Below are positions 37,581 to 40,235 of a stretch of 64,000 nucleotides of DNA, one piece after another. The position numbers were made by a program, and so were the translations under genes. This DNA comes from Clostridia bacterium. Its GTDB lineage: Bacteria > Bacillota > Clostridia > TANB77 > CAG-508. Position 1 is the stretch's first letter, and every line of letters begins with the position of its first letter. The notes beneath the pieces are model-generated. The model had not been told where the DNA came from, ran no database searches, and was given only the letters and a program-made list of their open reading frames with translations. The DNA lies in NCBI GenBank assembly GCA_017437145.1, contig JAFSBT010000005.1:10017-74016 (forward strand). Reading direction: 5' to 3'.

Positions 37581-37721
37581 GATAAGGAATGTAAGTGCAT
37601 ATTTTACAAGTCTATTACATTTTAATTACATTTGTATAACTTAATTGTATTTAAATTGTATTAATGATAATATTATGTTGTGAAGTTAGATAAATTTAAC
37701 AAATTAACAAAGGAGAAGGTT

Positions 37722-40235
37722 ATGAATGTTGAAGCTTTTTTAGATTATAATGAAATATTAAAAATAGTATTTGAAATATCAGAAGATAAAATTGATTATA
37801 ATATAATATGTGAATATGGAGATGAAAGGTTAAGAAATAGAATTATTAATAATCTAAAATCAATTTGTACGTTTGAACAAACTGAAAATCCAGATATTTA
37901 CAGATTATCTATTAGTGATACTATATATATTAATATAAAAAAATCTACAGGAGAAATAGAAAGCATAAACAAACTTACAGCATTCGAAACAAGAACTTTA
38001 GCACAAAAAAAAGATGAAGTTACTATATTTGATAGACAAGAAACAGATTTTGTACCAAAAACAGATTTACATACACATTTTGCAGGAGCACTTTCTCCAG
38101 ATATTTTAATAGATGTTGCAAAAAATCATAATGTAACATATCCGGCAAAATTTTTGCAAGAAATTGGAATTGATATAAGTAAATATGAGAAAAATGAAAA
38201 AGGTGAAATATTAATATCTTCTATAGTAGAAGAAGATATTAATATTTTAAAAGAGCGTCTAGCAATTCCAATGACTACCCAAGAAACTTTTAATAAAATG
38301 GAAGAGATATATAAATTAAGAGGACCATTTACAAAAAATCAGGCATTATTTGCTGATTATTTAAAAGCTTTAGCAGCAGACTATAAAGAAAAGGGAATAG
38401 AATATGCAGAATTATCGTTTTCAGCATTTGTAGGGGAAGATAAATATAATTCTGAGTATATGCAGATTATGGAAGATGTACTTCCAGAAATAGAAAAGGA
38501 AACAGGAGTAAGACTTAGATTTTTAGCAGGAATTTGGCGTCATTCAGATAAGGAATGGAATTTAGATGATGTAGATAGAATAAAAACAATAGCGAAAAGC
38601 CCATATATTGTTGGGTGTGATTTTATGGGTCACGAAACAAATGAAACAAAGGATTTTACAGAAGAATTAGAAATGCTTGCAGAATATGCAATGCTTGAAG
38701 ATCCAGAATTTACAATTAGAGTGCATGCAGGAGAAAACCCAATATTTAAAAAAAATGTATATCAAACATTAAAAATAATGCACGATAAACATGCTAGGAT
38801 GGAAGAAAAATTAGGAAAAAAACTTCCAATGCCTAAAGTAAGAATAGGTCATGGTTTATATGGCCTAGATGGAATAGAAGACGAACAATGGAACCCTGTA
38901 CCACCAGAGGAGATATTAGGACTATTAAAGGAAATGGGGGCTATTGTAGAGTTTAATATGAGTTCAAATTTAGCTTTGAATAATATAAATAGTATTTCAG
39001 AAATTCCAATAAAAAGATATTTAGACGCAGGTGTAAAGGTTACTTTATCAACAGATGGGCATGGATTATATTCAACAGCTGGAATTCAAGAAGTAATATT
39101 GGCACTTGCTGCAGGACTAAAAAAAGAAGATTTAGAAAAAATTAGTCAAAGTGAAAAAGATGTAATGGAAGGAGAAAAAAGACGAGAAGAAACCCATGAA
39201 CCAATAAAGGATGTAAGAGCATTATATGATGGGATTACATATTCTACAGAAAATGGAGAAAAAAGATATACAAAAGAAGTAGAAGAAAGGATTAGATTTG
39301 CAAAAGAAAAAGCATATGAAGATTTAACAGATGCAATTAGTAATAAAGCAGGTGCAGTTACAGATAAAGAGGAAATAGAAAAAGCGATAAAAGGTAAAAC
39401 TCCAATAATGCTAACAGGAGCATCAAAAAGTGCATGGCCAAAAGTATCTGAACAAGACCAACAATATATTTCTATACTTACTCAGGTTTTAGCAGATACA
39501 TTAAATCCAAACAGCACTTATATAATGACCGGGGGAACAAATTTTGGAGTTGAAAAAACAATGCATGAGGCAGTGTACAGAAGCAATAAAAAAAGAGAAG
39601 AAAAAATGGTTTTATTAGGAACCTTTACAATGGAAGCGGAGCAAGATTTGCCAAGTATAGAACCAAACACTATAACACATGCTACAATATTACAATTAGA
39701 AGGAAGAAATGCAAATAACTGGATGGACTTACCAGAAACGCAATTAGTACATACTCAAAAAAATGGAGGACATGTAATAGGAATAGCAGGAGGAGCAGTA
39801 GTAAGTGATATAATTCAAAGAGGATATAATTTGGATATGGATATGCATTTAATGGATGGACCTAAAGGTGCATCTACAGATAAAAGTAGATCACTTGCAG
39901 GAAATGATTATTCATTTAAAACAATAGAAGAATTATTACAAAGATTATATTCAAGAAACCCGAATTTATTTGGACCAGAATTTTCATTAGACAAATCAGA
40001 AATCTATATAGAGAACGCTAAAGGAGAAATTGAAAAAGCAAGGGAAAAGCCTAATAATATATCAGAAGTGCAAGAAATCCCAGAACTAACGGAAGTAAGA
40101 GAAGTAACTCCAAAAGAAATTGCAGATACAAGTAAAAAAATAACTGCAGGAGAATTACAGCCATTTAAAAATGGATTTGGAAAATGGATAGAAAACATAA
40201 GAAAAAAAATACAAGAAATATTTATTAATAAATAA
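37722..40235 (+). CDS. large multidomain protein: unknown N-domain + adenosine/AMP-deaminase-fold metal hydrolase + LOG/SLOG-like Rossmann domain + C-terminal ~45-aa tail shared with the next gene
   Basis: Deaminase motifs DLHTHFAG, CDFMGHE, IRVHAGENP, LSTDGHGLY. LOG-like motifs IMTGGTNFGVEKTMHEAV and VIGIAGGAVVSDII. Start chosen at MNVEAF after RBS aaaggagaagg (ORF opens at 37680). Confidence 0.65.
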   Translation: MNVEAFLDYNEILKIVFEISEDKIDYNIICEYGDERLRNRIINNLKSICTFEQTENPDIYRLSISDTIYINIKKSTGEIESINKLTAFETRTLAQKKDEVTIFDRQETDFVPKTDLHTHFAGALSPDILIDVAKNHNVTYPAKFLQEIGIDISKYEKNEKGEILISSIVEEDINILKERLAIPMTTQETFNKMEEIYKLRGPFTKNQALFADYLKALAADYKEKGIEYAELSFSAFVGEDKYNSEYMQIMEDVLPEIEKETGVRLRFLAGIWRHSDKEWNLDDVDRIKTIAKSPYIVGCDFMGHETNETKDFTEELEMLAEYAMLEDPEFTIRVHAGENPIFKKNVYQTLKIMHDKHARMEEKLGKKLPMPKVRIGHGLYGLDGIEDEQWNPVPPEEILGLLKEMGAIVEFNMSSNLALNNINSISEIPIKRYLDAGVKVTLSTDGHGLYSTAGIQEVILALAAGLKKEDLEKISQSEKDVMEGEKRREETHEPIKDVRALYDGITYSTENGEKRYTKEVEERIRFAKEKAYEDLTDAISNKAGAVTDKEEIEKAIKGKTPIMLTGASKSAWPKVSEQDQQYISILTQVLADTLNPNSTYIMTGGTNFGVEKTMHEAVYRSNKKREEKMVLLGTFTMEAEQDLPSIEPNTITHATILQLEGRNANNWMDLPETQLVHTQKNGGHVIGIAGGAVVSDIIQRGYNLDMDMHLMDGPKGASTDKSRSLAGNDYSFKTIEELLQRLYSRNPNLFGPEFSLDKSEIYIENAKGEIEKAREKPNNISEVQEIPELTEVREVTPKEIADTSKKITAGELQPFKNGFGKWIENIRKKIQEIFINK

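Follow-up and report, generated by a model that had tools for sequence, protein, structure and literature searches.

The stretch of DNA analysed here (the window) comprises 64,000 nucleotides of a Clostridia bacterium genome (assembly GCA_017437145.1, contig JAFSBT010000005.1, positions 10,017 to 74,016) and carries, on its forward strand, a gene whose product joins an adenosine-deaminase fold to a SLOG domain and is called ADA-SLOG below. The open reading frame (ORF) was confirmed at 37680–40235 (+), with a mechanically assigned GTG start at 37680; the ATG at 37722 is preceded at a distance of 6 nt by a Shine–Dalgarno-like AAGGAG (37710–37715, +) and is, on this reading of the sequence, the likely true start, so that the gene (37722–40235, +) encodes 837 amino acids plus the stop codon. 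The only database record of the exact sequence (100% identity) is "hypothetical protein IJN50_04820", from a metagenome-assembled genome (MAG) of a Clostridia bacterium. The protein is a member of both the adenosine-deaminase and the SLOG superfamilies, lies outside Add, LOG, Cad1, RADAR and Thoeris, and belongs to a horizontally mobile family with its own small partner proteins. Its domain composition suggests a deaminase controlled by a nucleotide sensor, possibly with a role in defence or as a toxin.

An AlphaFold2 model built on 51 homologs (predicted local distance difference test, pLDDT, 88.5; predicted template modelling score, pTM, 0.84) consisted of five parts: an N-terminal domain, a TIM barrel, a helical linker, a Rossmann-like domain with a helical extension, and a C-terminal tail. 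A first-pass annotation made from the sequence alone had described three domains, namely an N-domain without a recognisable fold, an adenosine-deaminase fold and a SLOG-like fold, and this architecture was borne out by the model, Pfam and Foldseek. The TIM barrel (residues ~108–495; 38043–39206, +) was identified from Pfam, Foldseek searches of the PDB, alignments with adenosine deaminase (ADA) structures and invariant columns. The Pfam A_deaminase profile (PF00962), which all of the top homologs also carry, matched with an E-value of 3e-24 (86.2 bits against a cutoff of 27), and Foldseek placed the (beta/alpha)8 barrel with ADAL, bacterial ADA, the plant N6-mAMP deaminase MAPDA and Cad1 (E-values 6e-13 to 4e-10, probability 1.00, target TM-scores 0.7–0.79), so that the proposed membership of the middle domain in the adenosine-deaminase family was upheld. 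It is not the housekeeping enzyme Add, because it scored 75.9 bits against the 216.55 required by TIGR01430 and fell far below the cutoffs of all PRK09358 sub-models.

The deaminase motifs named in the first-pass annotation, DLHTHFAG, VHAGE and TDGHG, are genuine and invariant in the 51 homologs. They contain the catalytic set H117 and H119 (in DLHTHFAG), H335 and E338 (in VHAGE), H377 (in GHG) and D445 (D445-G446 in TDGHG), which is likewise invariant and aligns with the metal-binding and catalytic residues of solved ADAs, that is, with the HxH motif, His214, Glu217, His238 and Asp295 in mouse ADA numbering; TDGHG aligns to SDDPG of the Plasmodium enzyme. With no member of this set missing or variable, and with a fold like that of ADA, ADAL and Cad1, the deaminase is probably active. 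Two positions depart systematically from ADA. The equivalent of Asp19, the Asp of HxHLDG that contacts the ribose 5'-OH in ADA, is an invariant alanine (Ala121, in HTHFAG), and the equivalent of Asp296, the second Asp of SxxxDDP, is an invariant glycine (Gly446, in TDGHG). The acidic residue at the Asp19 position is also replaced in nucleotide-specific relatives. The exchange of the aspartate that binds the ribose 5'-OH in ADA for an invariant alanine would fit a 5'-phosphorylated substrate, and the substrate is probably a nucleotide.

The second domain (residues ~555–745, with a helical extension to residue 775; 39384–40046, +) has the Rossmannoid three-layer SLOG fold shared with LOG, DprA, YpsA, MCP and TRPM-MHR, and its invariant residues are T603-G-G-T606, G609, E611, H615, T650, T652, H653, G690-G691, Q699, N703, S718 and K721. 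When the family profile was compared with all solved structures, the best sequence match was the N-terminal domain of TRPM2/8; the glycine loop reads TGGTNTGVMKHVGEAV in TRPM2 and TGGTNFGVEKTMHEAV in ADA-SLOG. The N-terminal domain of TRPM2 is the orthosteric site for ADP-ribose (ADPR) (PMC6759353). The window protein was below threshold for the two LSDAT models of Pfam, PF18171 and PF18139 (13.6 and 13.0 bits against cutoffs of 25.4 and 25.7), whereas LSDAT_prok reached 24.3 bits in a Chlamydiales homolog (locus L045) and, at 27.1 bits, exceeded its cutoff in the relative P0229. An exhaustive profile search with the SLOG domain only recovered 311 clusters among 1.84 billion representatives, nearly all with the deaminase–SLOG architecture. 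Of the two LOG-like motifs noted earlier, the first, TGGTNFGVEK, stood as the glycine loop of the SLOG fold; the second, GIAGGAVVSDII, placed by motif comparison at the position of the LOG motif PGGxGTxxE, lacks the threonine and the catalytic glutamate, and the family consensus at this presumed position, GGGxxVxDMIQ, contains neither. Lysine_decarbox/LOG (PF03641-type) gave no Pfam match to the window protein at E ≤ 1. The earlier suggestion of a LOG-type N-glycosidase was therefore not upheld, because the LOG catalytic motif is missing and the closest sequences are those of the ligand-binding TRPM/LSDAT clade, to which the domain probably belongs. Since TRPM is the best match, P0229 passes LSDAT_prok, the LOG motif is absent and this SLOG subtype is almost exclusively attached to deaminases, the domain looks, by analogy, like a sensor.

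The remaining parts are specific to the family. The N-terminal domain (residues 1–105; 37722–38036, +; pLDDT ~90) is beta-rich with two helices, has invariant L85, E89, F103 and R105 and nearly invariant T86, F88 and R91, and had no Pfam or PDB-sequence relative in searches of Pfam, PHROGs and PDB profiles, none of which was informative; it is missing from the most divergent homologs, whose loci match only from residue ~83–114 onward. According to the modelled secondary structure, a helical linker (residues ~498–545, with a long helix at 518–543; 39213–39356, +) connects the deaminase to the SLOG domain. The C-terminal tail (residues 776–837; 40047–40232, +) comprises a disordered stretch (pLDDT <50 at residues 777–795), the segment VTPKEIADTSKKIT and an amphipathic terminal helix (residues 815–836; 40164–40229), the hydrophobic moment of which, 0.55, lies at the 99th percentile within the protein. 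The last ~55 residues (within 40047–40232) are homologous to the end (41450–41618) of w_425, the product of the next gene in the window, with the common pattern KPNN...VTPxEIAxxSKxxT...ENxRxKxQxxF; the local alignment score was 88, against 25.8±5.1 for shuffled sequences, and none of 2000 shuffles reached 88. Of 110 other full-length homologs, 52 carry the tail motif [ST]xx[DE][RK]xxG, whereas chance alone would account for 1.1. Both tails, and also the Y proteins described next, end in strongly amphipathic helices, and the tail may be a docking or localisation element, possibly the site at which Y binds.

No neighbour of ADA-SLOG was universal among the loci examined (numbered L; individual proteins, P), and several families recurred. 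The first, Y, consists of unannotated proteins of ~150 amino acids (>736 members), whose genes overlap the ADA-SLOG stop codon in five lineages (L001, L003, L011, L021 and L058). The genes of the X family and of w_248, described below, are followed by Y paralogs in the same manner, and another paralog comes directly after an HD_4–RelA_SpoT pair; Y genes were located at 9001–9474 and 11260–11718 of L058 and at 9001–9447 of L057. The Y family looks like a promiscuous antitoxin or adaptor and, because its paralogs pair with unrelated proteins, would serve a shared tail rather than provide domain-specific immunity. The second family, PGDYG-like, has >240 unannotated members of ~170 amino acids, of which only a 34-residue stretch matches PF14083, along with PHROGs of unknown function; a literature search found no mention of "PGDYG". 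Members of the family were located at L009 7414–7929, L053 6001–6552 and L055 6001–6543. The gene directly precedes ADA-SLOG in Alphaproteobacteria and Saccharibacteria, lies on its downstream side in a Bacilli MAG and is divergent from it in Ignavibacteriales, and it is fused to the N-terminus of ADA-SLOG in L012 (the N-terminal part of 7041–10271) and to its C-terminus in L032, L033, L038, P0114, P0141 and P0238. Distant members follow large unannotated proteins of 1,434 and 641 amino acids, with a tiny ORF between. Because Y overlaps stop codons and the PGDYG-like protein is adjacent or fused at either end, the arrangement resembles the partner logic typical of toxin/antitoxin or effector/regulator pairs. 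Both partner families are undescribed.

The X family adjoins ADA-SLOG in six loci, and the architecture scan found it fused directly to ADA-SLOG in P0228; searches of Pfam, PHROGs and PDB profiles gave no informative match for either X or Y. A resemblance of X to RyR repeats, seen by eye, was dropped, as it had no Pfam support even at E ≤ 10. NUDIX genes directly follow ADA-SLOG in two Alphaproteobacteria and, as Nudt16-like members, in Ignavibacteriales; in L040 one was recognised by eye three genes upstream, and elsewhere others lie within a few genes. Counts of this association rest on Pfam annotations, the NUDIX-box regular expression being too strict to quantify it. For L001, L058 and the window, NUDIX as well as GNAT genes may belong to a shared host flank rather than to the system. 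The ADA-SLOG module was also found inside two giant proteins, P0151 (4,275 amino acids; L051 6001–18828) and P0263 (6,896 amino acids; L052 6001–26691), one of which adds a PGDYG-like domain and Fic and the other ResIII and PP2C.

More than 800 homologs are on record, none of them named and nearly all from metagenomes, mostly of gut bacteria. With the patterns used, 39 loci were detected among 185,579 species genomes, each in a MAG and none in a cultured organism. The hosts belong to at least seven phyla and include Saccharibacteria, Clostridia/Bacilli, gut Alphaproteobacteria, Gastranaerophilales, Ignavibacteriales, Lactobacillaceae, Chlamydiales and Oligoflexia; the window protein is 58–59% identical to the Saccharibacteria copies, and phyla are intermixed in a neighbour-joining tree. 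In L001 and L058/L059, the ADA-SLOG cluster lies 2–4 kb downstream of a Recombinase–TnpV–MobC–Relaxase set, in the order (L058/L059 1–11718; L001 3427–10926) Recombinase–TnpV–MobC–Relaxase and then ADA-SLOG–Y–HD_4–RelA_SpoT–Y', Y' being a further Y gene. The sequences of L058 and L059 part ways immediately 3' of Y', and the cluster therefore appears to be cargo: an integrative mobilizable element probably carries the deaminase together with a small-alarmone synthetase/hydrolase pair. In L057, from a close relative of the window genome (its w_226 homolog is 84.5% identical), an X–Y pair occupies the same place, and both the deaminase and the methyltransferase that precedes it in the window are missing. 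Three observations support the horizontal mobility of the gene: phyla are mixed in the tree, some copies lie close to relaxase and recombinase genes, and a close relative lacks the gene at the syntenic locus. This part of the earlier description of the region as a horizontally acquired island thus stood; the elevated GC content on which that description had also drawn did not, and was rejected as a sign of transfer, because the value of 0.31–0.32 is no higher than in leuS and other core genes of the window. A phage or plasmid origin was likewise rejected, since nothing meaningful emerged when 50,697 phage records and 72,556 plasmid records were searched with tblastn, IMG/VR was scanned and BFVD was searched with Foldseek.

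Some variation within the family was also observed. In about 6 of 43 loci (L013, L017, L026, L035, L036 and L048), ADA-SLOG is broken up into two or three ORFs, perhaps because the MAGs were misassembled or because a costly gene has been inactivated. The most divergent homologs, from Chlamydiales, Oligoflexia and environmental Proteobacteria (L045 2674–8852, L046 4625–10067 and L044 10093–12478), lie in other operons, composed of IU_nuc_hydro, a 658-amino-acid protein of unknown function and ADA-SLOG or, elsewhere, of carbonic anhydrase, a 655-amino-acid protein of unknown function and ADA-SLOG. An uncharacterised family of 477–655 amino acids recurs in L044, L046 and L048, and a 257-amino-acid neighbour in L044 appeared SLOG-like by eye.

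Within the window, ADA-SLOG is preceded by an orphan N6/N4 DNA methyltransferase gene (36558–37538, +; GTG start; Pfam 1.6e-43) without an adjoining nuclease gene, and a hairpin with an 11-bp stem (37542–37575) lies 3' of its stop codon. Downstream, w_425 (40344–41621, +; TTG start) was characterised by BLAST, Pfam and the architecture scan. The first-pass annotation had called its product a Zn-PLC-fold protein, which was not sustained: its N-terminal part matches a 169-amino-acid protein without the first ~45 residues, including an N-terminal His-containing segment, and the only support for a phospholipase C was a sub-threshold Pfam match to Zn_dep_PLPC (E-value 0.012). Its C-terminal part is an X-family domain ending in the tail common to ADA-SLOG, and w_425 looks like a gene fusion. 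Its stop codon is overlapped by the start of Y2 (41621–42088, +), a Y family member of ~150 amino acids. Y1 (35233–35679, −), a second paralog 39% identical to Y2, overlaps by 4 nt the upstream ORF w_248 (35676–36422, −; 248 amino acids), which had no family match and the position of which is held by X in related loci. The first strong terminator-like hairpin 3' of ADA-SLOG lies at 42722–42766, and the scan found no terminator-like site between the gene end and this hairpin, so that ADA-SLOG and the next three ORFs may be co-transcribed. The last of these, within the putative operon, encodes a hydrophobic protein of 92 amino acids with about three transmembrane segments (42300–42578, +).

Several features of the wider window were recorded as well. 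A 606-amino-acid protein (43885–45705, −), encoded on the other strand at a distance of 3.6 kb from the deaminase, comprises an uncharacterised N-terminal region of ~390 amino acids and a C-terminal ABC-type ATPase with weak PADLOC matches to mad3 (5.7e-15), mad8 and AbiLi. From reading of the translations only, mreB/mreC (24139–26007) are separated by ~21 kb from mreD, a PBP2 gene and minC (47675–50923), with ispG, ispH, a sortase gene and the deaminase region lying between. The Mg-chelatase-like comM (16691–17380/17338–18228) and aldose-1-epimerase (31261–31737/31709–32476) genes each consist of two overlapping ORFs, which could result from a frameshift or an assembly error.

We tentatively interpret ADA-SLOG, with somewhat less than even confidence and by analogy, as a mobile, stand-alone, ligand-gated effector that deaminates adenine nucleotides. 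In this model, the TRPM/LSDAT-type SLOG domain would bind a small nucleotide, at best guess an ADP-ribose-like derivative of NAD or alternatively an alarmone, and the bound ligand would switch on the attached zinc deaminase. The deaminase would then convert adenine nucleotides (ATP, dATP or AMP) into inosine nucleotides, the formation of which would arrest growth or poison replication, as in Cad1 and RADAR. Small partners would restrain or localise the enzyme, namely Y in this clostridial clade and the PGDYG-like protein, adjacent or fused, elsewhere; in the window, the C-terminal tail common to ADA-SLOG and the X protein would be the likely docking element, and the NUDIX hydrolases that adjoin the gene in several lineages would clear ITP or IDP. 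A more elaborate proposal, which we consider doubtful, is that the gene forms the core of an unrecognised mobile immune or toxin module, in which a TRPM2-type sensor of the ADPR class gates a deaminase of ATP/dATP (or of ADPR) that is silenced by promiscuous Y or PGDYG-like partners, the same partners also servicing X, RelA_SpoT-type alarmone synthetases and giant proteins of unknown function.

A role in defence or as a toxin is the most plausible one, and the grounds for it are analogy and context. Proximity to known defence genes does not contribute, since none was found beside ADA-SLOG except the orphan methyltransferase and the weak ATPase match in the window. A number of observations weigh against the effector interpretation. 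The replacement of Asp296 by glycine means that base recognition may differ from that of known adenosine and ATP deaminases, and the invariant polar residues E611, H615, H653, Q699, N703, S718 and K721 of the SLOG domain could equally mark a second catalytic site; both ligand gating and the deaminase role are predictions for the family as a whole. In the window, no Y gene is directly coupled to ADA-SLOG, as Y1 and Y2 are coupled to w_248 and to the X-containing w_425. No signal-generating enzyme (TIR, cyclase, CD-NTase or Cas10) was found beside any copy, and no partner matched PADLOC: among 30 neighbour and partner proteins, the search returned only methyltransferase models, the weak mad3/mad8 matches to the ABC-like ATPase and a weak match of a NUDIX protein to PDC-S07, the model of a candidate system. 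Many copies lie among housekeeping genes (tpiA–pgk–gpmI, rpsB–tsf, rpsL–rpsG and secE–nusG), and synteny is stable within lineages, unlike that of a typical defence island. Because of this housekeeping context and the lack of PADLOC matches among the partners, the label "defence island" is unearned.

The same housekeeping flanks and stable synteny in several lineages are what would be expected of a metabolic enzyme of purine nucleotides, either an allosteric deaminase of AMP or other adenine nucleotides, as a bacterial analogue of eukaryotic AMP deaminase, or a bifunctional deaminase and SLOG N-glycosidase. In host-associated bacteria with small genomes, such an enzyme would supply salvage with IMP or hypoxanthine, and the SLOG domain would serve as an allosteric nucleotide site or second catalytic centre. 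The hosts, which are mostly reduced or host-dependent (Saccharibacteria, gut Alphaproteobacteria, Gastranaerophilales and Chlamydiales), are consistent with this, as are neighbouring nucleotide enzymes (NUDIX, Ham1 ITPase, NTPase_I-T, HD, IU_nuc_hydro, Nuc_deoxyri_tr2 and NAPRTase/PRPP synthetase) and the precedent of PpnN, a LOG-family enzyme that is allosterically regulated by ppGpp. Against these stand the rarity and patchiness of the family, its movement between phyla with relaxase and recombinase genes alongside, and the lack of the gene at the syntenic locus of a close relative; furthermore, the LOG motif is not conserved, every Add equivalog model scores the protein far under its cutoff, and small promiscuous partners and giant multidomain proteins with Fic or PP2C are unlike anything associated with salvage enzymes. 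We therefore regard a metabolic role as rather unlikely. Distinctly unlikely, in our view, is a toxin delivered into competitor or host cells, where it would deaminate adenine nucleotides, with Y or the PGDYG-like protein as an immunity protein or export adaptor and the tail as a recognition or targeting element. The overlapping stop and start codons of the toxin–immunity-like pairs, the Y paralogs and PGDYG-like proteins behind other large proteins, the giants with Fic, PP2C and ResIII domains, the recurrent tail motif and the presence of epibionts, predators and intracellular bacteria among the hosts (Saccharibacteria, Oligoflexia and Chlamydiales) would all fit delivery. Yet Pfam, in a search that did not extend to signal peptides, revealed no secretion-associated domain in the protein or its neighbours except, at a single Saccharibacteria locus, a weak T4SS_pilin match two genes upstream; the toxin-like domain lies in the middle of the protein, whereas that of polymorphic toxins is C-terminal; immunity proteins are not usually fused to the enzyme, as the partner is in several lineages; and the pairing of Y paralogs with unrelated proteins fits an adaptor or antitoxin for the shared tail better.

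The first-pass annotation had also considered a pathway of DNA or nucleotide hypermodification involving the adjacent methyltransferase, and had compared the protein with RADAR, whose RdrB is likewise a large protein with an adenosine-deaminase fold. The gene immediately upstream is indeed a genuine N6/N4 DNA methyltransferase; it is separated from ADA-SLOG by a hairpin and an intergenic region, and a methyltransferase is absent from beside the gene in every other homolog locus examined. No RdrA-like ATPase was detected, in agreement with the annotation, since PADLOC gave no match to RdrA or RdrB in the protein or its neighbours, RdrB not even at E ≤ 1. Because the methyltransferase is unique to the window locus and the RdrA/RdrB signature is lacking, both of these readings fail, and we consider them highly improbable.

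If the effector interpretation is correct, its implications extend beyond this locus. Corruption of the ATP/dATP pool by deaminase effectors, as in RADAR and Cad1, is a recently recognised immune strategy, and the ADA-SLOG family would represent a third independent solution with a different sensor domain. That bacterial sensor is related to the domain with which TRPM channels bind ADPR, and the roles of this domain in prokaryotes are essentially unstudied. The family is compact, being a single gene with or without one small partner, and its catalytic residues are clear. The Y (>700 members) and PGDYG-like (>240 members) families are candidate general-purpose regulators of diverse effectors in gut bacteria. 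The mobile module, if real, would add a new sensor–effector combination and two new antitoxin or adaptor families, and would give the ligand-binding domain of animal TRPM channels a prokaryotic enzymatic context. If the role is instead metabolic, uncultured symbionts such as Saccharibacteria would possess a hitherto unrecognised way of turning adenine nucleotides into inosine nucleotides.

A literature search found no paper describing an ADA-SLOG fusion, and the earlier view that the architecture matches no named system was corroborated by PADLOC, in which only the deaminase part of the protein had a match, to CARF_ADA. RdrB of RADAR, a defence effector that acts on ATP/dATP, differs from ADA-SLOG in its domain organisation. 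LOG and PpnN share the glycine-rich nucleotide loop, and their catalytic PGGxGTxxE is replaced by GGGxxVxDMIQ in ADA-SLOG. The LSDAT_euk SLOG of TRPM2 (MHR1/2) has a nearly identical glycine-rich loop, and both proteins are associated with NUDIX, as the NUDT9-H domain in TRPM2; unlike ADA-SLOG, TRPM2 is a eukaryotic ion channel without a deaminase, and the window protein scores below the LSDAT thresholds of Pfam.

Two further parallels are Cad1/CAAD, an ancillary effector of type III CRISPR, and the ThsA effector of type I Thoeris. Cad1/CAAD combines a CARF sensor with a deaminase that turns ATP into ITP, and a Nudix hydrolase accompanies it (PMC12993439, PMC13276650). Like ADA-SLOG, it fuses a catalytic domain with the adenosine-deaminase fold to a Rossmann-like nucleotide-sensor domain; CARF_ADA was the sole PADLOC match of ADA-SLOG (E-value 1e-15; structural match ~4e-10), covering only positions 215–457 of the 605 in the model, that is, the deaminase part, and Nudix recurs beside both (PMC12993439). 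The two differ in that the sensor of ADA-SLOG is a C-terminal LSDAT-type SLOG and that of Cad1 an N-terminal CARF domain, and ADA-SLOG has an additional N-domain and tail. Pfam gave no match to CARF in ADA-SLOG, no CRISPR repeat array was present in the 64-kb window, and no cas families occurred in genes within ±6 kb or in the annotated homolog loci. Thoeris pairs a TIR-domain ThsB with a ThsA effector of SIR2–SLOG or Macro-TM composition. ThsA of type I is a SIR2–SLOG protein, with SIR2 in place of the deaminase and a SLOG domain of the STALD type, whereas that of ADA-SLOG is closest to the TRPM/LSDAT clade; neither TIR (ThsB) nor SIR2 was found in the protein or its neighbours. By analogy, ADA-SLOG as a putative effector would follow the logic of Cad1 with CARF exchanged for SLOG or that of ThsA with SIR2 exchanged for a deaminase.

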